Position numbers and translations under genes: made by a program. From an uncultured Bacteroidales bacterium (GTDB taxonomy: Bacteria > Bacteroidota > Bacteroidia > Bacteroidales > F082), in the NCBI GenBank assembly GCA_905236635.1, contig CAJOCJ010000005.1:98045-162044 (forward strand): a stretch of DNA of 64,000 nucleotides, read 5' to 3'. Position 1 is the first letter of the stretch; every line of letters begins with the position of its first letter. The notes under the pieces were generated by a model, which saw only the letters and a program-made list of their open reading frames with translations, had not been told where the DNA came from and ran no database searches. Positions 2,391 through 53,896 of this stretch are shown here, in pieces.

Positions 2391-4190
2391 ATGTCGTTGG
2401 ATATCATTAAGTTACTGCCCGATTCCGTTGCGAATCAGATAGCCGCCGGAGAGGTCATCCAGCGGCCGGCGTCGGTTGTGAAAGAGCTCGTAGAGAACGC
2501 GATAGATGCCGGTGCCACACAGGTCGACCTCGTTGTGAAGGACGCCGGCCGCACATTTATCACTGTCATCGACAACGGCTGCGGCATGTCAGAGACTGAT
2601 GCTCGGCTGTGTTTTGAGCGACATGCGACATCAAAAATCAAATGCGCCGACGACCTTTTCGCCATAAAAACCATGGGTTTCCGCGGAGAGGCATTGGCTT
2701 CGATAGCAGCTGTGGCACAAGTGGAACTTACGACAAGACGCAAGGAAGACGAGGTGGGAACCAAGATACGTATCGAAGGCTCTAAAGTCATAGAACAGAT
2801 GCCGAAGCCAGCGTCAGTGGGCACCAACATAACAGTAAAAAACCTGTTTTTCAACGTGCCGGCACGACGTAATTTCTTGAAATCCAATGAGGCAGAGCTC
2901 CGTCATATCAACGAGGAGTTTTTCCGTATCACCATCATGAACCCGGAGATAGGATTCACCTTCGTGAGCAACGACAAGGAGTTGTTCCATCTCTATCCGG
3001 GCACTCTGAAACAACGTATCGTCGGACTTTTTGGAAAGGATTACGACGGTAAACTGTTGCCGGTCAACCAGATAACTGAGTCGGTGACCATCGACGGATT
3101 CATCGTGAAGCCAGAGTTCTCAAAGAAGACCCGCGGCGAACAGTATTTCTTCGTGAACCGCCGTTACATCAAGCACGCCTACCTGCATCATGCGGTGGAG
3201 AATGCCTATAAGGAACTCATCCCACAGGACTGCTTCCCTGGCTATTTCCTTGATATTCAGATAGATCCGAAAGAGATTGATATCAATATCCACCCAACGA
3301 AGACAGAAGTCAACTTCATCGACGTGAAGCTGATATATGCCATCATGCATTCTGCCGTGCGTAAAGCCATAGGACAGAATAACTTAGCGCCGACACTGGA
3401 CTTCGACATCAACCCTAATATGGGCATCGATTTCGGTGAGGCGAGTCGTATGGACAGGCCGGTCATCACCCCGCAGGTGGATTACGATCCGTCGTTTAAT
3501 CCATTCAAAATCACGCCGATACGTCATCAGCAGCAGAACTGGCGGATAGCCTACGATGACAGTGGTGACACAGTGGCGAACAGCAAGTTTACGGACAATG
3601 AGCCTGTCGTTCATGAAGATGATGAGCAGAAGAGCCTCTTTATCCAGCTGCAGCAGGCATATATCGTGACCACGGTGAAGTCGGGAATCCTCGTCGTAGA
3701 CCAGCATCTGGCACATGAGAGGATACTCTACGAGAAATATCTCAAGGAGATGCAGACCGACGTCAATGCCTCACAGCAGGAGCTGTTCCCACAACATATC
3801 TCATTGAATATCAACGATGCATCGCTTCTGAAAGAGTTGAAACCTGAGCTCGAGAAGATAGGTTTCCGCATCGAGACGATGAACAACACCACCTTCGTCA
3901 TCAACGGCACCCCTGTCGATTGTAAAGGCAGCGACGCCGTCTCGCTGATAGAGAAGATTTTAGAGGATTACAAGACGAATATGTCTGGTAATCAATCAGA
4001 TAAGAAATTGAATTTAGCACGTTCACTGGCATCGCAGATGGCAGTGAAGGCAGGCCAGACGTTGACTGCTTTGGAGATGCAGGATATAGTCGACAGACTC
4101 TTCGGCTGCGCTGTGGCCGAGGTGGCCCCGGATGGCAAGAAAATCTTCACAATCATCAATGCTGGCGACATAAAAACACGTTTAAGCTAA
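2391..4190 (+). CDS. mutL: DNA mismatch repair protein MutL
   Basis: N-terminal GHKL ATPase signature (IAAGEVIQRPASVVKELVENAIDAG, DNGCGM, GFRGEALASI) plus a MutL C-terminal dimerisation region. Confidence 0.95.
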   Translation: MSLDIIKLLPDSVANQIAAGEVIQRPASVVKELVENAIDAGATQVDLVVKDAGRTFITVIDNGCGMSETDARLCFERHATSKIKCADDLFAIKTMGFRGEALASIAAVAQVELTTRRKEDEVGTKIRIEGSKVIEQMPKPASVGTNITVKNLFFNVPARRNFLKSNEAELRHINEEFFRITIMNPEIGFTFVSNDKELFHLYPGTLKQRIVGLFGKDYDGKLLPVNQITESVTIDGFIVKPEFSKKTRGEQYFFVNRRYIKHAYLHHAVENAYKELIPQDCFPGYFLDIQIDPKEIDINIHPTKTEVNFIDVKLIYAIMHSAVRKAIGQNNLAPTLDFDINPNMGIDFGEASRMDRPVITPQVDYDPSFNPFKITPIRHQQQNWRIAYDDSGDTVANSKFTDNEPVVHEDDEQKSLFIQLQQAYIVTTVKSGILVVDQHLAHERILYEKYLKEMQTDVNASQQELFPQHISLNINDASLLKELKPELEKIGFRIETMNNTTFVINGTPVDCKGSDAVSLIEKILEDYKTNMSGNQSDKKLNLARSLASQMAVKAGQTLTALEMQDIVDRLFGCAVAEVAPDGKKIFTIINAGDIKTRLS

Positions 4191-5071
4191 TGGATAACCA
4201 ATTTAGACCACAAGGATTTTCGATATTACCCCTGGTAGTCAAGAACCTCTTGATTATCAATGTGATATTCTTCCTGGCTACATGGGCGATGGAGGCGGCA
4301 TGGCATATTGATCTGGCTCAATATCTCGGATTGCATTACATTGGAGCATCGGATTTCCGCCCATACCAGTTCGTGACATACATGTTCATGCACGGCAACT
4401 TCGCGCATCTGTTCTTCAATATGTTCGCCCTCTGGATGTTCGGCAACAGCATCGAAAACGCCTGGGGTCCCAAGCGATTCCTTATATTTTACTTCGTATG
4501 CGGCATCGGCGCCGGTCTGACACAGGAACTGGTGCAATACATACAACTCTCCGACATCGCGAATTATCAAAACGTGAAGCTCAGCGGTCAAATCATACCC
4601 GTTGACCAATACCTCAACATGCTCACTACTGTGGGCGCCTCAGGAGCTGTCTACGGCATACTTCTTGCATTCGGCATGATGTGGCCAAACTCCAGGATTT
4701 ACATCTATTTCGCCATTCCTATCAAGGCAAAATGGTTCGTGTTATTATACGGTATCATCGAGCTTTTCTCGGGTTTCTCGTCGGTGGACAACGTGGCACA
4801 TTTCGCTCATGTGGGCGGCATGCTGTTCGGCCTGATTCTCATACTTTATTGGCGATATAAAGAGGGTATATGGCAACCAAAATTCTTTACGAAATTCAAG
4901 AAAAAACAGCAGGATTACGGTCGCCCGCAGTCTGACTGGGATTATAACAAAGAACGTTACGACGAACAGAAACGGACCGACGAAATCCTTGAAAAGATTA
5001 GCAAAGGCGGTTACGACAGCCTCACAAAAGAGGAAAAAGAGTTTTTATTTAAGCAAAGCAAGAAGGGTTGA
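4190..5071 (+). CDS. rhomboid-family intramembrane serine protease
   Basis: Multi-TM protein with the rhomboid motifs HGNFAHLFFNM, GASGAVYG and AHxxGxxxG (AHVGGMLFG). TAATG overlap with the mutL stop. Confidence 0.9.
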   Translation: MDNQFRPQGFSILPLVVKNLLIINVIFFLATWAMEAAWHIDLAQYLGLHYIGASDFRPYQFVTYMFMHGNFAHLFFNMFALWMFGNSIENAWGPKRFLIFYFVCGIGAGLTQELVQYIQLSDIANYQNVKLSGQIIPVDQYLNMLTTVGASGAVYGILLAFGMMWPNSRIYIYFAIPIKAKWFVLLYGIIELFSGFSSVDNVAHFAHVGGMLFGLILILYWRYKEGIWQPKFFTKFKKKQQDYGRPQSDWDYNKERYDEQKRTDEILEKISKGGYDSLTKEEKEFLFKQSKKG

Positions 5072-16099: not shown

Positions 16100-16107
16100 T
16101 ATTTTTG
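16100..16107 (+). promoter_or_regulatory. Bacteroidetes -7 box (TAnnTTTG) for the SRP RNA
   Basis: TATTTTTG ends 4 nt before the 5' closing helix of the SRP RNA. Confidence 0.65.
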
Positions 16108-16110
16108 CAG

Positions 16111-16208
16111 CGGGTAAGTCTTATACGACCAGCTCCTGTCAAACTCCCCCAGGGTCGGAAGGCAGCAAGGGTAGATGGTTGAGCGGTGCGATATAAGTAG
16201 CTTACCCT
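16111..16208 (+). ncRNA. ffs: signal recognition particle RNA (small bacterial 4.5S type)
   Basis: The closing helix GGGTAAG (16112-16118) pairs with CTTACCC (16201-16207). The conserved domain IV core is CCAGGGTCGGAAGGCAGCAAGG, with a GGAA tetraloop and an AGCA loop. A T-run follows. Confidence 0.9.
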
Positions 16209-16222
16209 TTTTTGTCTCTGAG

Positions 16223-16691: not shown

Positions 16692-17627
16692 ATGGATATC
16701 TCTGTCGTTATACCTTTGCTGAATGAGGAAGAATCGTTGCCCGAACTCGAGGCATGGATTCGCCGCGTCATGAATGAAAACAACTATTCATACGAGATCG
16801 TGTTTGTCGACGACGGCAGCACCGACGGATCATGGCACTGCATCCAGCAGCTCAAGGCAGAGAACCCTAACGTCAAAGGCATACGTTTCAGAAGAAACTA
16901 TGGCAAGTCAGCGGCACTCAACGAAGGATTCAAAGTCGTGCAAGGCGACGTGGTCATCACCATGGATGCCGACCTTCAAGACAGCCCAGATGAGATCCCG
17001 GAGCTTTATAACATGATTGAAAAAGACGGCTACGACCTCGTAAGCGGCTGGAAGAAAAAACGTTACGACTCCACAGTGTCGAAAAACATTCCTTCTAAGT
17101 TCTACAACTGGTCGACACGCCGCATGACGGGTATCAAGCTGCATGACTTCAACTGCGGACTCAAGGCTTACCGCAACGAAGTGGTTAAAAGCATAGAGAT
17201 ATACGGCGAGATGCACCGTTACATCCCGGTCATCGCTAAGGCTGCAGGCTTCACGCACATAGGGGAGAAGGTGGTCCATCATCAGAAACGTAAATTCGGC
17301 ACTTCAAAGTTCGGAATGAGCCGTTTCTTAAGAGGTTACCTCGATCTGCTCACCATCACGTTCATCTCGAAGTTCGGCAAACGCCCTATGCACCTCTTCG
17401 GAGGCCTCGGCAGCCTGACGTTCCTCGCCGGTTTCATCATGAGCGTTATCCTTGTGGTTAAGAAATACGCCTTCCACGCTTATGGCATGACACGCCGTCC
17501 GCTGTTCTATCTGGCATTGCTCTGCATGGTGGTCGGTACACAACTCTTCCTCACGGGATTCTTAGCCGAACTCGTGCAATCAACATCGTCAAAATCAAAA
17601 GTTTACGGTATTTCCGAACGGATTTGA
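16692..17627 (+). CDS. family 2 glycosyltransferase (polyprenol-phosphate sugar transferase-like, C-terminal TM helices)
   Basis: MDISVVIPLLNEEESL start, DDGSTDGS and a DxD motif (MDADLQD), with two C-terminal TM helices. ATG 16692 preferred to 16662. Confidence 0.88.
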   Translation: MDISVVIPLLNEEESLPELEAWIRRVMNENNYSYEIVFVDDGSTDGSWHCIQQLKAENPNVKGIRFRRNYGKSAALNEGFKVVQGDVVITMDADLQDSPDEIPELYNMIEKDGYDLVSGWKKKRYDSTVSKNIPSKFYNWSTRRMTGIKLHDFNCGLKAYRNEVVKSIEIYGEMHRYIPVIAKAAGFTHIGEKVVHHQKRKFGTSKFGMSRFLRGYLDLLTITFISKFGKRPMHLFGGLGSLTFLAGFIMSVILVVKKYAFHAYGMTRRPLFYLALLCMVVGTQLFLTGFLAELVQSTSSKSKVYGISERI

Positions 17628-17636
17628 TGGTTAAAA

Positions 17637-17670
17637 GTTAAAAGAGTAAAGTTAAAAGATCTCTTTTAAC
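17637..17670. terminator. candidate bidirectional AT-rich hairpin between convergent genes
   Basis: GTTAAAAGAG (17637-17646) pairs with CTCTTTTAAC (17661-17670). The stem is weak and AT-rich. Confidence 0.4.
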
Positions 17671-17683
17671 TATTATCTTTTAT

Positions 17684-18094
17684 CTAATATCTGTCATAAG
17701 GGTCGTCGTAAGGCTCGTCAAAGCCTTCTTCATCGAAATATTCATCCTCATCCTCACCGAAGATGTCTTCTTCATCCTCGGCAAACATGTTTTCGCCCTC
17801 TTCCCAGTCGAAGTCTTCCTCAAGCTTGCTCTCGTCAAACTCATCGATGTCGTTCATCTCGTTCATGAAGTCGCGAAGCTCTTCGTCACTCATCTCATCG
17901 AGATTGGCATTCAATAACTTATTGTCGCGTGACGATGCCCTCAACTCTTTCAAAACATCAGGGGCAATATAGAAATCGTCAATGTTTTCCTCACAATATT
18001 TGATGTACTTCGGGTCTTTCTCAAAGACTTCAGCCAGAGTCTGTCCCTCATATTTTCCAAAAGTGAAAATAGAATCTACGTCGTAAAATTTCAT
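17684..18094 (-). CDS. hypothetical protein: small N-terminal domain plus extremely acidic tail
   Basis: 136 aa. The N-terminus reads FTFGKYEGQTLAEVFEKDPKYIKYC. The C-terminal roughly 80 aa are mostly D/E/F residues. Confidence 0.75.
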   Translation of the reverse strand: MKFYDVDSIFTFGKYEGQTLAEVFEKDPKYIKYCEENIDDFYIAPDVLKELRASSRDNKLLNANLDEMSDEELRDFMNEMNDIDEFDESKLEEDFDWEEGENMFAEDEEDIFGEDEDEYFDEEGFDEPYDDPYDRY

Positions 18095-37035: not shown

Positions 37036-37149
37036 CGTCATTTCGAGCGTAACGAAGTGAAGTCGAGAAATCCTCCATAATCCTATGCTTTCGTTGATTG
37101 AGGATTTCTCCACTACGCTCCATTTCATTACGCTTCGGTCGAAATGACG
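37036..37149. repeat. palindromic miniature repeat, full copy (ribBA-ribH junction)
   Basis: Left arm CGTCATTTCGAGCGTAACGAAGTGAAGTCGAGAAATCCTC (37036-37075), a 24-nt spacer, then right arm GAGGATTTCTCCACTACGCTCCATTTCATTACGCTTCGGTCGAAATGACG (37100-37149). The arms are inverted copies of each other. Confidence 0.9.
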
Positions 37150-38363
37150 GGAGTGACGTCTTTCACATGAAGCATGTGCCCCATTTTCTTGTATTTCGTG
37201 TATAGATAAAATGCGTCCTTTTCGTTACAAGTCATCTCGATAGGCTCGCGACCGACAATTTCGATGCCATAGCCTTCCAAACCACTGATCTTCATCGGGT
37301 TATTGGTCATCACGATAATTTTTCTGGCACCCAAATCGGCCAAAATCTCAGCGCCAGTGCCGTAGTCGCGCAGGTCGGCGGCGAAACCGAGTGCGAGGTT
37401 AGCCTCGACGGTGTCCATGCCCTTGTCCTGTAAGGTATAGGCTTTGAGTTTGTTTATCAAGCCGATGCCGCGACCTTCCTGGCGGAGATAAAGCAACACG
37501 CCCCTACCCTTCGCCTCGATACGGCGCATGGCCTCCTGGAGCTGCTCGCCACAGTCACAACGCATGGAGCCGAAAGCGTCACCTGTCAGGCATTCAGAGT
37601 GTACGCGGCATAAGACAGGCTCAGGAGTGGTAAGATCGCCTTTCACCAGAGCCACATGATGCTCGCCGGAGATTTTGTCAACGAAACCGATGGCTTTGAA
37701 AGTGCCATATTTTGTTGGCAGTTCGGCCTCTGTGACACGTTCTACCAACACCTCAGTCTTACGACGATATTTTATCAGTTCAGCTATCGAAGTGATTTTC
37801 AGGTTGTTAGCCTTAGCAAACTGCAACAGTTCTGTTGTGCGCATCATGGTGCCGTCTTCACGCATGATTTCGCAGCACAAACCGCATTCCTTCAGTCCTG
37901 CGAGGCGCATCAAATCGACGGTAGCCTCAGTGTGGCCGCCACGTTTCAACACACCACCTTCGCGTGCCTCAAGCGGAAACATATGGCCTGGACGACGGAA
38001 ATCCTCAGGACGGATGCCGTCTTCCACCACTTTGCGAGCAGTGATAGAGCGTTCCACTGCCGAGATGCCTGTTGTAGTATCGCGATAATCAATGGAGACG
38101 GTGAAGGCAGTGCAGTGATTGTCGGTATTCTCCACCACCATTTGATTGAGCTTCAAGCGTTTACATATCTCAGAGCTCATCGGCATGCAGATCAAACCCT
38201 TGCCGTACGACGCCATAAAATTCACGTTTTCGACGGTCGCAAACTCAGCTGCACAAATCAAATCGCCTTCGTTCTCACGGTCAGGGTCATCGACAACGAT
38301 GATCATCTTGCCGTTACGCAACTCTTCCAACGCTTCCTCAATAGTGTTAAAATCCTTATTCAT
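37128..38363 (-). CDS. ribBA: bifunctional 3,4-dihydroxy-2-butanone-4-phosphate synthase / GTP cyclohydrolase II
   Basis: 411 aa with DHBP synthase (DRENEGDL) and GCH II ([15 protein letters not shown]) motifs. The last codons (..VISTEA) and the stop lie inside the repeat. Confidence 0.95.
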
Positions 38364-38368
38364 TTATG

Positions 38369-39010
38369 TTAAAAATTATTGTCATTCAATAAGTTAAGTA
38401 AGTTTTCGTCTCTTCTTGCAGAAAAACTCCCCACAAACTTTTCGATATATTTCCCAACGATATCGTTCTCCAAATTGACGGTCTCGCCCACTTTTTTCTT
38501 TGTCAAAGTGGTGGCGTCCTGGGTGTGTTCAATGACAGAAACACCAAAATCGAAGTTACTTACATCGGTGACTGTCAACGAGATACCGTCGATGGTGATG
38601 GAGCCTTTTTCCACGATATATTTCAAAATCTCAGGACGTGTATCTATTTTTATGCGAATAGCCTTGTCGTCCTTAGTCATTTTTGAGATGATGCCGGTGC
38701 CGTCGATATGTCCCGAGACTATATGTCCGCCAAAACGACCATTTGCAGGCATCGCGCGTTCACAATTCACTAAGTCGTTGACTCTCAAATCTTTGAAGTT
38801 GGTACGATTCATTGTCTCAGGCATAACATCTGCTGTATATGAGCTGTCGTCGAATGTCGTCACCGTCAGACAAACACCGTTAGTGCAGATGCTGTCGCCA
38901 ATGTGCATGTCCTCCAGAATCTTATTGACTGCTATAGTCAGTTTGATGCTGTTGGAGTGCCGAACTATGGCTTTCACCTTGCCGATTTCCTCAATTATTC
39001 CCGTGAACAT
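38369..39010 (-). CDS. ribE: riboflavin synthase (alpha chain)
   Basis: 213 aa. MFTGIIEE start and a duplicated lumazine-binding repeat (GDSI..NGVCLTV / GSITIDGISLTV). Confidence 0.95.
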   Translation of the reverse strand: MFTGIIEEIGKVKAIVRHSNSIKLTIAVNKILEDMHIGDSICTNGVCLTVTTFDDSSYTADVMPETMNRTNFKDLRVNDLVNCERAMPANGRFGGHIVSGHIDGTGIISKMTKDDKAIRIKIDTRPEILKYIVEKGSITIDGISLTVTDVSNFDFGVSVIEHTQDATTLTKKKVGETVNLENDIVGKYIEKFVGSFSARRDENLLNLLNDNNF

Positions 39011-40170
39011 ATCTTTCCTTTTATTAAAATATCTCCGTTAATATTCTGAATATCAATATCTTGCAATTTTATCGCATCGCACATCCTGTCGATTCCCTTG
39101 CCTGCGACAGGTGTCTTTGCGTCGCTTCCTCCGATAATTTTCGGTGCTATGAATGCCCACACCTCGTCGACGCAGCCAGCCTCGAGGAATGCGGCATTCA
39201 GGGTGCCGCCGCCTTCTAACAATAATGAATCAATGCCATGCGCGCCTAACTGTGTCATAAGGTCGTTAATGTCGACATGGCCATCTTTTGATGCACAATG
39301 AATAACCTCAAGACCTCTCATTTCCAGCGTTTGCTGGGAGTCGAGGAATCCTTTTTGTTTGTTAACGTTTAAAGAGGATTTCTCCACTTCGCTCCGCTCT
39401 GCTTCGCTTCGGTCGAAATGACGGCAAGCAACGATTGTCCTGTATTCTTTTGCTGTCTTAACCAATTGAGAATCAATAGGAATCCTTAAATTTGAATCAA
39501 CAACTATGCGTATCGGCTGGTGATAATTTCCATCCAATCGGCAATTCAGCATTGGGTTGTCGGCAATGACGGTGTTAATTCCGACCACCACACCTGCCAT
39601 TTCGCTTCTTAATTCATGCACCATTTTGCGTGATTCTTCGTTCGTCACCCATTTGGAATCGCCAGTATGTGCTGCTATTTTCCCATCAAGTGTCATAGCA
39701 GTCTTCATAATGACGTAAGGTCGTTTGGTGGTTATATATTTCAAAAACACCTTGTTCAGTTCTCGGATCTCGTTTTCGCAGATGCCCACCTCCACTTCAA
39801 TGCCGGCGTTTTGCAGAATCTTCACGCCTTTCCCTGCCACAAGTGGGTTTGGGTCGAGGATGCCCACGAATACTTTTTTAATGCCTTTTTCAATGATGAT
39901 TTTGGTGCAAGGAGGCGTTTTACCGTAATGGCAACAAGGTTCAAGTGTTACATAAAGTAAAGCGCCTTTAGTCTCTGACTGACAATTTGTTAAAGCATTA
40001 CGTTCAGCATGAAATTCGCCATATTTTTCATGGTATCCTTCGGCGATGACCTGGTCGTCTTTCACCACGACGCAGCCCACCAGAGGATTAGGATGGACGA
40101 AGCCTCCGCCCTTCTTCGCGAGCTCTATCGCCCGCCTCATGAATTCGATGTCTTTTTCGCAATATGACAT
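38995..40170 (-). CDS. ribD: bifunctional riboflavin biosynthesis deaminase/reductase, carrying a 35-codon repeat-derived insertion
   Basis: 391 aa with a CMP/dCMP deaminase zinc motif (HAE...PCxxC: EPCCHYGKTPPC) and a reductase domain. Residues RHFDRSEAERSEVEKSSLNVNKQKGFLDSQQTLEM are encoded by repeat 39319-39423. Confidence 0.93.
   Translation of the reverse strand: MSYCEKDIEFMRRAIELAKKGGGFVHPNPLVGCVVVKDDQVIAEGYHEKYGEFHAERNALTNCQSETKGALLYVTLEPCCHYGKTPPCTKIIIEKGIKKVFVGILDPNPLVAGKGVKILQNAGIEVEVGICENEIRELNKVFLKYITTKRPYVIMKTAMTLDGKIAAHTGDSKWVTNEESRKMVHELRSEMAGVVVGINTVIADNPMLNCRLDGNYHQPIRIVVDSNLRIPIDSQLVKTAKEYRTIVACRHFDRSEAERSEVEKSSLNVNKQKGFLDSQQTLEMRGLEVIHCASKDGHVDINDLMTQLGAHGIDSLLLEGGGTLNAAFLEAGCVDEVWAFIAPKIIGGSDAKTPVAGKGIDRMCDAIKLQDIDIQNINGDILIKGKICSRE
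39319..39423. repeat. palindromic miniature repeat, full copy inside ribD (in frame)
   Basis: Degenerate left arm TCATTTCCAGCGTTTGCTGGGAGTCGAGGAATCC, a spacer, then right arm GAGGATTTCTCCACTTCGCTCCGCTCTGCTTCGCTTCGGTCGAAATGACG (39374-39423). The length is 105 nt, exactly 35 codons. Confidence 0.88.
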
Positions 40171-40200: not shown

Positions 40201-40228
40201 TCATATTATGAAAAATTAATCAATTAAA

Positions 40229-40345
40229 ACTTCTCTCATCCGGACTATCACCGTCGGTTTCGGAATTTCACCGAATCAGTTCCCCTTGGGGAAGTCGCGG
40301 ACTGTTACCGCCGGAAAGGAATTTCACCTTGCCCTGAAGTTTTAG
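40229..40345 (-). promoter_or_regulatory. FMN riboswitch (RFN element)
   Basis: The minus strand reads CTTCAGGGCAAGGTGAAATTCCTTTCCGGCGGTAACAGTCCGCGAC...TTCGGTGAAATTCCGAAACCGACGGTGATAGTCCGGATGAGAGAAG, matching the conserved RFN core. It lies upstream of ribD. Confidence 0.92.
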
Positions 40346-43471: not shown

Positions 43472-43489
43472 TAACCTAAAATTTTGGTT

Positions 43490-44941
43490 ATGATAACTGT
43501 TGACGACATAAAGAAAACGATTGCAGAACTCGTTGGAAGTATCGGTGAAAAGGCTTTGGAAATCAATGCGATGCCCAGTTCAGGCTCGTCGAGGCGCTAT
43601 TTTAGGGTTAAAACCGACAAGAGATTCCTGATTGGAGCTTTTAATCTCAACGTGGAGGAAAATGATGCCTTCTTCAGTTTTACAAAGCATTTCCATGAAT
43701 GCGGCCTCCCCGTTCCCGAAGTTTTGGCAGTGTCAAAATCCAAAGAAATCTATATCCAGACCGACCTTGGCGATGTCACTTTGTTCCATCATGTCGAAGA
43801 TTGTCTGAAAAACGGTCATTTTGATCCAAATACCATCGATTTATATAAAAAATCGCTCGACAAACTTATTGATTTTCAAATAGTTGGACACAAAGGACTG
43901 GATTATTCAAAAGCATTCCCGACGGCTGATTTCGATGAGATGTCGATAATGGACGACCTGAATTACTTCAAATATTGTTTCTTGAAGGAACACGAGGAGA
44001 TTGCGTTCAACGAGACACGCTTAGACGCTGATTTTCAGAAGCTTACACAATATATCCTCGAAGCGCCGTCCGACTTCTTCATGTATCGTGATTTTCAGTC
44101 ACGCAACATCATGATAGTCGACAAAGAACCGTATTTTATTGATTATCAAGGTGGTAGAAAAGGTCCTCTGCAATATGACGTGGTTTCGTTGCTATACCAG
44201 GTGAAGGCACGAATACCACAGGAATTGAGGGATGAATTGGTTGAGTATTACAAAATTAAACTGTTTGAACGAATTGAATGTGATTCATTCGATAAATATT
44301 TCCCGGCATTTGTGCTATTGAGGTTGTTGCAAGTCCTTGGCGCATACGGTTTTAGAGGATTGATTCAGAAGAAGGCGCATTTCATGCAGAGTATTCCATA
44401 CGCTATTCGCGAGATCATGTCGGTTAACGAAAAATGGCCTTTGCCGTTTGAATTGCCCGAGTTACAGTCGGTCATCAGGCAGTTTGGCATCTTGCTGTTG
44501 AAATATGAATATACTGAGCCTCAGAGACTTACGGTGACAGTCAACAGTTTCTCATTCAAAAACGGAGGTGTCCCGTACGACAATAGTGGCAACGGCGGCG
44601 GCTTCGTCTTTGACTGCAGAGCCTTGCCCAACCCCGGCCGCTACCCCGAATTCAAACAGGTGACGGGCGAAGCCGCCGCCGTGCAAGAGTTCATGGAGGA
44701 TAAACAAGACACTCATTTCTTTATGTCGAACGTACAACTGCTTGTTTATCAATCGATTGACAACTATCTTGAGCGCGGTTTCAAGCATCTTCAGATTAAC
44801 TTTGGATGCACGGGAGGACAGCACAGATCGGTGTATTTCGCACAAAAGATTGGCATGTTGATTCATGAAAACTACCCTATGGTTAATGTCGAAATCAATC
44901 ATTTGGCACAACATATAAGTCATTATTATGAAGCGAAATAG
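43490..44941 (+). CDS. AmgK-like anomeric sugar kinase (APH fold) fused to a RapZ C-terminal-like domain
   Basis: The N-terminal roughly 340 aa are kinase-like (GSSRRYFR, YRDFQSRNIM, DYQGGRKGPLQYDVVSLL). The C-terminal roughly 140 aa carry SFSFKNGGVP, FDCRALPNP and FGCTGGQHRSV motifs, matching RapZ/YvcJ C-domain signatures. ATG 43490 preferred to TTG 43484. Confidence 0.8.
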   Translation: MITVDDIKKTIAELVGSIGEKALEINAMPSSGSSRRYFRVKTDKRFLIGAFNLNVEENDAFFSFTKHFHECGLPVPEVLAVSKSKEIYIQTDLGDVTLFHHVEDCLKNGHFDPNTIDLYKKSLDKLIDFQIVGHKGLDYSKAFPTADFDEMSIMDDLNYFKYCFLKEHEEIAFNETRLDADFQKLTQYILEAPSDFFMYRDFQSRNIMIVDKEPYFIDYQGGRKGPLQYDVVSLLYQVKARIPQELRDELVEYYKIKLFERIECDSFDKYFPAFVLLRLLQVLGAYGFRGLIQKKAHFMQSIPYAIREIMSVNEKWPLPFELPELQSVIRQFGILLLKYEYTEPQRLTVTVNSFSFKNGGVPYDNSGNGGGFVFDCRALPNPGRYPEFKQVTGEAAAVQEFMEDKQDTHFFMSNVQLLVYQSIDNYLERGFKHLQINFGCTGGQHRSVYFAQKIGMLIHENYPMVNVEINHLAQHISHYYEAK

Positions 44942-45674
44942 AAGAACGGCATTCATACTGGCGGCTGGTCTTGGAACCCGCTTAAAAGAGCTTACTAAAG
45001 ACACACCAAAAGCTTTGGTATCAATCAATAATGCGCCTTTACTTAAAGTTGTACTTGAAGAATTGATAAAACAAGATTTCAATCATTTTGTGGTCAATGT
45101 ACATCATTTTGGAGAGCAGATAATAGAGTTCATAGGAGAGTTTCGCTCCGGTCGAAATGACGTCATAATCGAGGTCTCAGACGAACGGTCGCTCCTGATG
45201 GATACAGGAGGCGCAATACTACAGGCTCTACCCTATTTTACAGACAGCGAGGCCGTACTGGTCCATAATGTCGATGTGCTCACAAATGTTGATTTTAAAG
45301 GCTTTTACGACAGTTTTGTAAAGAGCGATGACGCCGCCTGGTTACTGACACAGGAACGTAACAGCAAACGCAAACTTGTGTTTGACCACAACGACAATTT
45401 CCTCGGACGTTTCAACACAGAGACCAGCGAATATGATGGCGATGGTGCATTGCCAAGCGACTGCAAATTGTTGTCATTCAGCGGATTACACCTATTTAAA
45501 CCCCAATATTTCAAAGATTTCGAGGTAAAACCATGTTATGTTTTTAAACTGTATCAAAAAATAGCTGAGAATCAAAGGGTTGCATCAAAACTGATACATC
45601 CTGACTACTGGTTTGACCTTGGCACACAAGAACAACTGACAAACGCGGAGTTATGGCTTTCATCAAGAAGATAA
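44928..45674 (+). CDS. MurU-like sugar-1-phosphate nucleotidyltransferase
   Basis: 248 aa. The N-terminal LAAGLGTRLKELT motif marks an NTP-transferase. It overlaps the kinase gene by 14 nt. The AmgK-MurU pairing is known for the MurNAc recycling bypass. Confidence 0.8.
   Translation: MKRNRRTAFILAAGLGTRLKELTKDTPKALVSINNAPLLKVVLEELIKQDFNHFVVNVHHFGEQIIEFIGEFRSGRNDVIIEVSDERSLLMDTGGAILQALPYFTDSEAVLVHNVDVLTNVDFKGFYDSFVKSDDAAWLLTQERNSKRKLVFDHNDNFLGRFNTETSEYDGDGALPSDCKLLSFSGLHLFKPQYFKDFEVKPCYVFKLYQKIAENQRVASKLIHPDYWFDLGTQEQLTNAELWLSSRR
45136..45164. repeat. short fragment of the palindromic repeat family inside the MurU-like CDS
   Basis: GAGAGTTTCGCTCCGGTCGAAATGACGTC compared with the short form GAGGATTTCTCCGCTTCGGTCGAAATGACGTC at 52848-52879. 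It encodes EFRSGRNDV. Confidence 0.55.
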
Positions 45675-52162: not shown

Positions 52163-53896
52163 TCAGTTGATTATCTGACTCTCTACCACTTCTGCTATAT
52201 CTTTCACCTTAACAGGCGATTTTCTTGCGAAGGTCTTGAGGCACAACGGACATGCTGTCACAATCTCATCAGGATTGTTGAACATCAAGTCGTTGACTGA
52301 GTTTTCAGTAATCTCATCACGTTCTTTTTGAGTCAGGTTGAAGCTACCCAAGCTGCCGCCGCAGCATATGCTGAGTTCTTTTTCTGACTTGGCTTTGCAG
52401 AGATTGCCAACGTTTTCTAGCACTTCACGCGGCTCGTCATACACACCGAAGGCTCGTCCGAGCTCACATGGGTCGTGATAGACGTAGTTGACATCATTTT
52501 TGTTGACCTTCAGCTTGCCGCTCTTGACAAGCTCGTCGATATACTGCGTATGATGTTGAATCTCAATGCCTTCCAAGTGGTATTCCTCTTTAAACACCTT
52601 ATAGCATATTGGGCAAGAAAGCACTAGCTTTGTAGTGCCCGATTGCTTTATCAGCTCGGTGTTTTTCTCAATCATAGCCTGCGCTTCTGCTGTCTTGCCG
52701 CTCAAAAGCATCGGACGTCCGCAGCAGATGCCACCGTTCTCGTCAAGGAACTGGTACTCCTCGCCCGCCGCTGTCATTATCTTCTTCATCGCGCGCATGA
52801 TCTTTGGCGTAAGCTGGGTCATGCAGCCTGCAAAATATAGGACTTTCGAGGATTTCTCCGCTTCGGTCGAAATGACGTCGAGATATGAATGGTCGCTATG
52901 GATCTCATACGGAACAGCGGCGCGCTGGCTCATCTTGATGTCGCAGGATTCGATGCTTACCGGACATACTTCCACGCACTTGCCGCATTGCATACATGTC
53001 TCCGCGATGCGTTGGGCTTCTTCCTTATCGCCATTTCTCAGCTTCTTCATGAAATAAGCCGAGGTGTTGCCGCTGTTTTTGTCGTTGACACTCATCGGGC
53101 AAGCGTCGATGCAAAGTCCGCACGATGGGCAGGAATAAATCTGTGCCAAGGCGTAACCTTTTCTTGGGTCGCTCGGCTTGATGCCAGCATGACGCAACAA
53201 TATGAACAACGCCTCCGTCGGGATGTGCATGTAACGTGTAAACGGCAGCATACACATAAATATCAGCAGGTCGATGGAATAGAGCCACCAAAATGCCATG
53301 ATGTTGGTCTTCTCGGCTATGAGTCGGAACGGGAAGATGGTCCACAAAGCGAAACGGATCATATTGTCGGCAAATCCGAACTTCGTGACGCGCTTCACTC
53401 CCACTATCTTCGAATGAATCTTCTTCACCACGGCGATGAGGATACCGCTGATTATCATGAGGAGGAAGAAATCCATCAGGAACGCGAACACCGGGGTTTC
53501 CGTTGCGAAGAATTTGTAGAAAATCGGGTAATAGAAGTTGGTGAAAGTACGCGCCATGCCTTCTACCTCAACGCCTTGCAATGGTTTTAATGTGAACAGC
53601 ATGATATGGCCTATCACGATAATCATAAACCAGCCGAAGGCTATGGCAGAGTGCATATAACCCAGCACCGGGTTGCGTTTCCATATCTTCACATGGAAGA
53701 GGCAGTCGCCAAACAGGTCGCGTATGTTGGCCCACGCCGTCTTTGGTGTCACCAGCGAGCGCCAGAACTTCTTACGGTCGTCTTTCGGCAGCTGAGCTAT
53801 TACTCTTATAAGTCCCACGACGCAGTACGTCAGCACGAAAGCCATGCCTAGTACAAACGGGAGCACAAAAGGATGAAATATTATCTGTGAGTTCAT
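52163..53896 (-). CDS. membrane-anchored Fe-S protein: NarI/DsrM/HdrE-like TM domain + 2x[4Fe-4S] + two CCG domains (HdrD/DsrK-like)
   Basis: 577 aa. The N-terminal roughly 240 aa have 5-6 hydrophobic helices with conserved His (YMHSAIAFGW, FTRYMHIP). These are followed by CPSCGLCIDACP and CMQCGKCVEVCP, then ICCGRP...CPIC and ICCGGS...CPLC. Confidence 0.85.
   Translation of the reverse strand: MNSQIIFHPFVLPFVLGMAFVLTYCVVGLIRVIAQLPKDDRKKFWRSLVTPKTAWANIRDLFGDCLFHVKIWKRNPVLGYMHSAIAFGWFMIIVIGHIMLFTLKPLQGVEVEGMARTFTNFYYPIFYKFFATETPVFAFLMDFFLLMIISGILIAVVKKIHSKIVGVKRVTKFGFADNMIRFALWTIFPFRLIAEKTNIMAFWWLYSIDLLIFMCMLPFTRYMHIPTEALFILLRHAGIKPSDPRKGYALAQIYSCPSCGLCIDACPMSVNDKNSGNTSAYFMKKLRNGDKEEAQRIAETCMQCGKCVEVCPVSIESCDIKMSQRAAVPYEIHSDHSYLDVISTEAEKSSKVLYFAGCMTQLTPKIMRAMKKIMTAAGEEYQFLDENGGICCGRPMLLSGKTAEAQAMIEKNTELIKQSGTTKLVLSCPICYKVFKEEYHLEGIEIQHHTQYIDELVKSGKLKVNKNDVNYVYHDPCELGRAFGVYDEPREVLENVGNLCKAKSEKELSICCGGSLGSFNLTQKERDEITENSVNDLMFNNPDEIVTACPLCLKTFARKSPVKVKDIAEVVESQIIN
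52848..52877. repeat. short form of the palindromic repeat arm inside the HdrD-like CDS (in frame)
   Basis: GAGGATTTCTCCGCTTCGGTCGAAATGACG encodes VISTEAEKSS in the linker between the ferredoxin and CCG domains. Confidence 0.75.

Follow-up and report, generated by a model that had tools for sequence, protein, structure and literature searches.

We examined a 64,000-nucleotide stretch of genomic DNA from an uncultured Bacteroidales bacterium (the window; coordinates refer to it unless a relative is named), and in particular its ribD gene, whose reading frame contains a copy of a dispersed inverted-repeat element. The gene lies in an operon in which a flavin mononucleotide (FMN) riboswitch is followed by ribD and then by ribE, ribBA and ribH. 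The RibD protein matches the Pfam domains dCMP_cyt_deam_1 and RibD_C over their full length, matches RibD chains in PDB (E-value 2e-89), and has the deaminase zinc-site motifs HAE and PC..C. Its closest genome match is RUG11952 (92% identity), among uncultured rumen or gut Bacteroidales. The element inside ribD consists of two short repeat units, each with a terminal CGTC tag, in inverted orientation around a spacer. The features of the locus are:

38995..40170, minus strand: ribD, bifunctional deaminase/reductase, 391 amino acids including the insert (open reading frame, Pfam and PDB matches)
40224..40345, minus strand: FMN riboswitch upstream of ribD (Rfam RF00050, 112.5 bits), used here as operon context and as a positive control for nucleotide-level conservation
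39316..39423, minus strand: in-frame element, an inverted doublet with its CGTC tags outside ('HH'), made of unit A, spacer and unit B; encodes residues 250-285
39374..39423, minus strand: unit A, the arm read first on the sense strand, with sequence CGTCATTTCGACCGAAGCGAAGCAGAGCGGAGCGAAGTGGAGAAATCCTC; encodes RHFDRSEAERSEVEKSS
39352..39375, minus strand: spacer of 24 nt, TCTTTAAACGTTAACAAACAAAAA, flanked by the inner inverted repeats, GTGGAGAAATCC on one side and GGATTCCTCGAC on the other; encodes (S)LNVNKQK
39316..39351, minus strand: unit B, the degenerate second arm; encodes GFLDSQQTLEMR and sits in place of the lost native helix end

A sequence-only reading of this DNA had reported that ribD reads through a copy of an element that is also present at 37036-37149, and all of its statements about the sequence hold. 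The insert as first delimited (39319-39423; 105 nt or 35 codons, residues 250-284) is read as RHFDRSEAERSEVEKSSLNVNKQKGFLDSQQTLEM, between ...KEYRTIVAC and RGLEVIHCASKDG; it is in frame and stop-free, lies inside the reductase domain of an otherwise intact ribD, and has a degenerate left arm. The right arm, which is unit A, is GAGGATTTCTCCACTTCGCTCCGCTCTGCTTCGCTTCGGTCGAAATGACG at 39374-39423 and is 81% identical to 37092-37150 over 59 nt. When the complement of the CGTC tag is counted (GAGA here; GACA or GACG in relatives), the element extends to 39316-39423 (108 nt, 36 codons), and the limits first given fall 3 nt short at its left end. The frame used by ribD is the only one of the six that is stop-free. 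Unit A is identical or nearly so across seven genomes. The inner 12 nt of unit B still pair with unit A, and its outer ~25 nt have seven differences from the canonical arm that is kept in the related genome L081; the inverted repeats of the window copy match at 10 of 12 inner positions and over only 7 nt at the outer end. A HMMER search with the 37-residue insert peptide against 1.84 billion representatives gave no matches, and is uninformative for counting host proteins.

The insertion site in RibD

RibD proteins from outgroups–a Limimorpha-like metagenome-assembled genome (MAG), Odoribacter, Gabonibacter, Alistipes, Cryptobacteroides and Coprenecus–have 52-65% identity to the window protein and are 359-373 residues long, which agrees with the typical size of about 330-370 residues given in the sequence-only reading. 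Their segment …YRTvvA-HTxxAxxE-xLxxLxxxG-VE… places 17 residues between the two strands, as compared to 38 in the window, which makes the element an insertion. In outgroups where the repeat is absent there is nothing homologous to the inserted segment. The idea of a clean 35-residue insertion is not supported: this is a true insertion of a dispersed repeat, but the native 17-residue turn and helix have been lost, and the net gain is about 21 residues. In the relative L002 the element and the native helix occur side by side (…SLEMT-EKVRILELLG), so loss of the helix came after the insertion. Both helix-retaining and helix-lacking forms also occur with the flipped type of element described below. 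In an alignment to the Methanocaldococcus jannaschii reductase (2azn), QTLEMRG of the window stands opposite the native KILEDMG, and the end of the second arm (…LEMRG) is a look-alike of the native helix end (…LExxG) and has taken its place. Deletion of the helix through a shared CTCGAA microhomology was ruled out, the element end ATGAC(N) being intact in the derived forms. We also noted that, at this RibD site, a more distant relative, L010 (Candidatus Limimorpha), has a short repeat of another kind at codons ~259-270, GTCAGCAATCAG…GTCAGCAATCAG (SNQLSAVSNQ), with the native helix retained.

The position is one at which RibD proteins in general vary in length. When 81 RibD sequences from Bacteroidales, Lachnospiraceae, Clostridia and others were aligned, 606 inserted residues fell at the insert site, as compared to 95 at the next most variable site, and the inserts there reach 67 residues and are also found in Firmicutes. 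Almost all of the length variation in the alignment is thus at one position, and the site is the general permissive, hypervariable connector of RibD. The insert is open and in frame in 42 ortholog clusters. These results strongly back the earlier proposal that the repeat entered a permissive loop and was then selected for frame.

The repeat family and its turnover in ribD and neighboring genes

From copies in the window and in relatives, the repeated unit is ~26-46 nt long, starts with (C)GTCATTTCGA and ends with GAGAAATC. Units occur singly, as inverted doublets with the tags outside (HH), or as inverted doublets whose tags lie inside and point at each other (TT). The ribD copy and both intergenic copies are HH doublets, and the copies in the NTP_transferase and APH-like genes of relatives are TT doublets. 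The arm motifs occur 4-5 times in the window, as compared to 0-0.25 times expected from shuffled sequences. The family occupies four loci in the window and up to five sites per ~21 kb in relatives, and the doublets are 108-114 nt long. Apart from ribD, the copies in the window are:

37036..37149, minus strand: intergenic full copy between ribBA and ribH, a strong hairpin
52848..52877, minus strand: single 30-nt unit encoding VISTEAEKSS, in frame in an iron-sulfur (Fe-S) protein gene (52163-53896), in the linker that joins its 4Fe-4S and CCG domains
45143..45162, plus strand: 19-nt unit remnant encoding RSGRND, inside an NTP_transferase gene (44928-45674)

Orthologs of the intergenic copy evolve fast and have indels. 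A metagenome scan with one unit type hit contigs from many assemblies, with GC contents of 0.46-0.62 among the matches listed; among these matches, 8 of the 64 copies that could be classified are inside long open reading frames, and most are outside. For example, the metagenome contig L137 has typical intergenic doublets just downstream of genes, at 2401-2500 and 4171-4258. One of them has a spacer similar to that of an 87-nt element found in ribD of some relatives (below), so the doublet and its spacer seem to move as one unit.

Single units have z scores of -0.9 to +0.9 and form at best an interrupted stem of 5+3 bp, so they do not fold alone. The intergenic doublet has a predicted RNA fold of -50.2 kcal/mol (z = -6.3 against shuffled sequences), and the ribD copy of L081, with its canonical second arm, has z = -3.9. 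In the window, the ribD copy has a fold of -36.4 kcal/mol (z = -1.7), which is no better than shuffled sequences. A long RNA hairpin, as had been envisaged from the sequence, is therefore not predicted for this insert, its outer stem having been destroyed by 7 substitutions in 25 nt. The copy is weakly palindromic, and a repeat finder reported no inverted repeat within it.

Among the 120 closest orthologs of the window RibD (77-100% identity), we found differences at exactly the insert site. Its occupants in relatives include the window-type doublet, other repeats, double inserts and partial deletions. Some relatives have a related 87-nt doublet there (VISTEAERNGEISFNCRRFLDSLRSLEMT), and others have the reverse complement of this doublet (VISSDRRESRNL..EISPFRxASVEMT). 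The site can also hold a GTAG-type hairpin that is perfect, TGTAGAGACGCACGGCCGTGCGTCTCTACG (z = -5.8), and that takes the place of a native segment of the same length. A hairpin of this kind, GAGACGCACGGCCGTGCGTCTC flanked by GTAG/CTAC, is itself a dispersed repeat (L006 and L008 10767, L005 5940, L008 5882, L208 1897). Because GTAG hairpins occupy the same sites in ribD and in the APH-like gene as CGTC doublets do, the two families share landing sites. In five genomes the 86-nt core of the 87-nt type lies at nucleotides 720-806 of ribD, with three copies in one orientation and two in the other. When the flipped copies are compared with the reverse complement of the remaining ones, there are 6-14 differences in 86 nt, with the spacer homologous as well, while the genes themselves differ by 16-26%. 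Such a near-match to the reverse complement at the same coordinates indicates that the element was inverted where it stood, and the simplest route to this would be exchange between its terminal inverted repeats. In either orientation, the 87-nt version is stop-free in the frame used. The ribD site is a hotspot for several repeat families, and in two orientations.

Similar polymorphism is seen in other genes. The Fe-S/CCG linker in orthologs contains a non-repeat sequence of the same length (ENVETSSSVNST and others), longer unit-derived versions, or another hairpin. At the site of the remnant in NTP_transferase, several relatives have a full doublet of ~95 nt with tags facing, and the length of the gene ranges from 244 to 280 codons. 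The APH/PapZ_C-like gene (43484-44941) has no insert in the window; relatives (L001 5781-5861, L083 5711-5794, L008 5882) have, at a single site, the doublet, the same doublet in flipped form, a decayed copy, or a hairpin of the GTAG type (SCRDARPC), which makes this gene another in-frame hotspot besides ribD. In ribBA (37128..38363, minus strand), the stop codon and the residues just before it (…PVISTEA) come from the first unit of the intergenic element (37128-37149). The ribBA tail following …GHMLHVK(E/D) differs in each relative: it may come from a unit read in another frame, consist of a tandem SQETEDR repeat, or be a short sequence unrelated to the units. From the cases in ribD, the Fe-S protein, NTP_transferase and the APH-like gene, we conclude that in-frame colonization of loops and linkers is a property of this lineage.

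Elsewhere in the window, an AT-rich inverted repeat unrelated to this family lies between open reading frames at 17625-17696 (35-nt arms, 74% complementary, 2-nt gap). A Bacteroidales small signal recognition particle RNA at 16105-16211 (Rfam RF04183, 98.6 bits) fits the taxonomic placement of the DNA.

Nucleotide conservation and the origin of the insert

We consider it probable, with good support, that the ribD insert is a selfish repeat, tolerated in a permissive loop of RibD and filtered for frame. The insert is one copy of an inverted-repeat element, a doublet of ~26-46-nt units, that is non-coding and dispersed. It would have landed where a beta-strand (…RTIVA) of the reductase domain is joined to the next helix, and this connector is the only part of RibD in which nearly any length and sequence is tolerated. 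Only frame-keeping, stop-free versions would persist, because ribD is needed. The element would be translated as a loop of ~36 residues, probably on the surface of a RibD protein that is presumably made and active. The native turn and helix were deleted after the insertion, and the end of the second arm, by chance encoding …L-E-M-T/R-G, is in the place of the native helix end …L-E-x-x-G. Both the ribD site and similar loops and linkers in neighboring genes have been remodeled repeatedly in the lineage by new repeat insertions, by in-situ inversion between terminal inverted repeats, and by in-frame deletions.

Several observations weigh against this reading. An AlphaFold2 model of the protein, made with 41 close orthologs supplied, was poor (mean pLDDT, the predicted local distance difference test score, of 52); we used it only for a rough outline of secondary structure, in which residues 244-249 and 288-291 form strands, residues 279-284 form a helix, and residues 250-278 are unstructured. 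Because the model is poor, surface exposure of the insert rests on the alignment to solved relatives and on the variability of the site. By eye there is no target-site duplication at the ribD copy or at the intergenic copy, and no search was made for a transposase or parent insertion sequence, so mobility of the element is read from its distribution. A further difficulty is the conservation of the insert at the nucleotide level, which we examined in seven ribD genomes (the window, L001, L081 and L083-L086). It is centered on the following tract:

39347..39438, minus strand: 'frozen core' of 92 nt, which runs from 15 nt of native ribD sequence through unit A and the spacer into the inner end of unit B

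All 21 pairs of genomes have only 0-4 differences in these 92 nt. By comparison, ribD outside the insert is 10-19% divergent among five of the genomes, and the 300-nt flanks of the core are 12-27% divergent in diverged pairs. Third codon positions are segregating at 1 of 30 sites in the core and at 249 of 361 elsewhere (Fisher's exact test, 4e-13). Across 15.8 kb of synteny, divided into 1285 windows of 90 nt with a mean nucleotide diversity (pi) of 0.159, the minima are the FMN riboswitch and the core, both at 0.019 (values over the riboswitch are 0.019-0.036). The 87-nt type shows a similar pattern, with 0-7 differences in 86-87 nt as compared to 14-23% for the gene, and with 4 of 29 third positions variable as compared to 242 of 346 elsewhere; this related element is 3-10 times less diverged than its host gene. 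The 92 nt are conserved at the level of a riboswitch, synonymous sites included, and the idea of tolerated junk gives no account of this. Function, an inversion switch, and recombinational spread or turnover are each possible causes.

It is possible that the conservation reflects history and not function, if a patch of ~100 nt has spread recently among these species by homologous recombination or gene conversion, or if resident copies have been replaced time and again from an active master element that targets the site. A palindrome acting as a hotspot for breakage and recombination could drive the first of these routes, and ribD is a mosaic: L081 and L082 are near-identical over the first ~120 nt and the last ~180 nt of the gene but differ by 20-30% in the middle, which indicates that species of this clade recombine frequently with one another. 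Lineages also vary to some extent in where the identical tract ends. Diversity in ribD is greatest (pi = 0.21-0.25) in the 300 nt immediately downstream of the core (39047-39346), where there are two haplotypes, RGLEVIHCASKDG and TGVELLECQSNNN, whose deep split starts within unit B, the element's second arm. Turnover at the site is documented by its several repeat families, two orientations and deletions, and doublets with similar spacers at unrelated intergenic sites (in L137) indicate that doublet and spacer can move together. Spread would require, however, that at least five lineages each underwent a double crossover placed tightly around the same ~92-130 nt. The seven changes in 25 nt at the outer part of unit B argue for long residence, and the more perfect palindrome in the intergenic region has not been homogenized. 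In addition, ribD is the only locus carrying the window-type spacer in the ~0.4 Mb of related DNA that we compared, and the frozen tract includes 15 nt that are not element sequence. For these two reasons, gene conversion from other copies is unlikely to be the sole cause of the conservation.

Co-option of the ribD copy is doubtful as an alternative. On this explanation the copy became a functional nucleic-acid element under purifying selection on its nucleotides, either as an RNA structure in the mRNA of the rib operon, acting as a signal for processing, stability or pausing, or as a DNA site bound by a protein. Its tie with the FMN riboswitch as the least diverse of the 1285 windows, and its single variable third position, are what such selection would leave. 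The 15 nt of native upstream sequence in the frozen tract can pair with unit A in the predicted fold, and 3 of the 5 variant positions that touch predicted stems keep or improve pairing. The orthologous intergenic copy is not conserved, so the effect is specific to the ribD locus. Other results count against co-option. The predicted fold, as noted, is no better than those of shuffled sequences. Rfam had no match at the element, either at the gathering score or at E <= 1, and scans for sigma-70 promoters and for terminators found nothing above chance at it. Covariation cannot be assessed because the core has almost no variation. In the deeper relatives L003 and P0086 the homologous insert has decayed, so any function would be limited to the clade. 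Apart from these points, a listing of small open reading frames contained no convincing overlapping gene. A candidate antisense promoter of the Bacteroidetes type, picked out by eye (TTTG, 20 nt, TTTGTTTG), was rejected, its -33 part lying in the non-conserved arm end.

Quite unlikely, in our estimation, is the proposal that the ribD element is a selected nucleic-acid device, most concretely an inversion switch like the intragenic inverton in thiC of Bacteroides thetaiotaomicron, which is among the invertons validated in that species by Chanin et al. and has 11-bp inverted repeats and a premature stop (PMC10028968). Such a switch would turn RibD on and off in the window version and would give two loop peptides in the 87-nt version. 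If this were true, its recognition sequences, together with reading of both strands in the 87-nt version, would explain the riboswitch-level conservation.

We think it very unlikely that the element is an intragenic inverton, in which a recombinase flips the spacer or the whole element within populations. The whole element has been inverted at identical coordinates between lineages in ribD, and likewise in the APH-like gene, but both orientations have been observed only between lineages, and all seven genomes with the window version share one orientation. The 87-nt version is stop-free both ways, and reading of both strands would account for its frozen synonymous sites. Flipping the 24-nt spacer of the window copy gives …EVEKSFLFVNV followed by a stop at residue 272, that is, a premature stop; 24 nt is a very short invertible segment for recombinase synapsis, and identity between the inner repeats is limited to 10 of 12 positions and between the outer repeats to 7 nt.

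It is scarcely credible that there was no insertion at all, with an ancestral RibD segment resembling the repeat by chance or an assembly artifact being responsible: LEMRG does resemble the native LExxG and all the data come from metagenome assemblies, but the arm is 81% identical over 59 nt to the other copy and near-identical in relatives, the outgroups are without the segment, and an artifact is rejected because the same insert was assembled independently from at least seven samples or assemblies in several projects.

Comparison with known repeat systems

Our best reading of the tolerated selfish repeat is that it resembles, in its mode, the Rickettsia palindromic elements (RPEs), which were reportedly described by Ogata et al. 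in 2000 and 2002, and that it is a Bacteroidales counterpart of them. As with RPEs, there are many palindromic copies (here doublets of 108-114 nt) translated as extra loops compatible with the protein fold, and in-frame copies are present in several unrelated genes (here ribD, Fe-S/CCG, NTP_transferase and APH-like). There are also differences. The Bacteroidales element is in another phylum and has another sequence, and its likeness to RPEs is one of description; because of this, and because the host belongs to Bacteroidales, we do not claim strict membership of the RPE class. It is built of short units that occur singly and in both doublet arrangements, the native helix has been lost with the end of the second arm in its place, several repeat families occupy the site, with one and the same element present in both orientations, and part of the copy is frozen at the level of a riboswitch. 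To our knowledge, no RPE report describes a site with multiple families or two orientations, or riboswitch-level freezing. RPEs themselves are palindromic repeats of ~100-150 nt that are found in frame in unrelated housekeeping genes and also in intergenic regions (PMC10969869, PMC3733652), and RPE-4 and RPE-6 end in a CGTC tag (PMC3733652).

A second comparison is to the CGTC-tagged repetitive extragenic palindromic sequences (REPs) of Di Nocera et al. 2013, which are self-folding, with stems of 8-9 bp and loops of 4-5 nt (PMC3733652). They share with our units a CGTC tag with A-T pairs after it (most units here read CGTC-ATTTC…GAAAT), and the TGTC found in some copies here is a variation also noted for them (PMC3733652). 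They include intragenic copies encoding 20-30 residues, and have no known dedicated transposase (PMC3733652). They mostly form HH doublets, with spacers of 20-100 nt (PMC3733652); of the copies here, those in ribD and between genes are HH and those in the NTP_transferase and APH-like genes are TT. Unlike them, our units are 26-46 nt long and do not fold on themselves (z of about 0), which rules out the possibility that each unit is a self-folding REP. Because there is no self-folding stem of 8-9 bp, we have not filed the units in the groups CGTC-1 to CGTC-4. The 'Bacteroidetes' entries in the available part of the supplement to PMC3733652 are Chlorobi, and no riboflavin gene was found in that part of its supplementary text. 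In the library searched, we found no literature on intragenic REPs in Bacteroidetes beyond PMC3733652.

The REPIN/RAYT system (REP doublets and their associated transposases; Bertels & Rainey 2011, PMC3116915) is similar in having an inverted doublet with spacer as the mobile unit, and in its long-term persistence within lineages. REPINs are made of self-folding REPs with GTAG tags, flank a single-copy RAYT gene and are almost entirely extragenic, whereas the element in the window is tagged with CGTC; in some relatives, the ribD and APH-like sites do hold a true GTAG hairpin. Intragenic invertons resemble our case in placing short inverted repeats in Bacteroidales coding sequence, in that a flip recodes or truncates the protein, and in the involvement of a vitamin gene. 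They differ from it in that the inversion here is between lineages and the element is a dispersed repeat, not a gene-specific pair. The coding palindromes of Nematomorpha mitochondria are, in the available part of their description (PMC6649704), long inverted repeats in frame in essential genes with both arms translated; they are in eukaryotic organelle genomes, are perfect, and do not belong to a dispersed family that also has intergenic members. Classical miniature inverted-repeat transposable elements too are small, non-coding and present in many copies with terminal inverted repeats, but differ in that no target-site duplication was seen here by eye; a parent insertion sequence was not searched for.

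This case places in-frame palindromic repeats in free-living gut and rumen Bacteroidales, which are abundant in those microbiomes. The repeats gather at connectors that were already hypervariable, and so they are natural probes of the tolerance of proteins to insertions. An element that flips in place, and that is coding both ways, offers proteins an easy way to acquire new loop sequences. Most worth following up among our results are this flip and the conservation at the level of a riboswitch: that a resident copy is conserved like a riboswitch points either to co-option or to a strong process of recombination or turnover that centers on the element. Whichever holds, it has a bearing on the persistence of selfish repeats in bacteria, and on how 'odd' low-complexity inserts in MAG proteins should be read.

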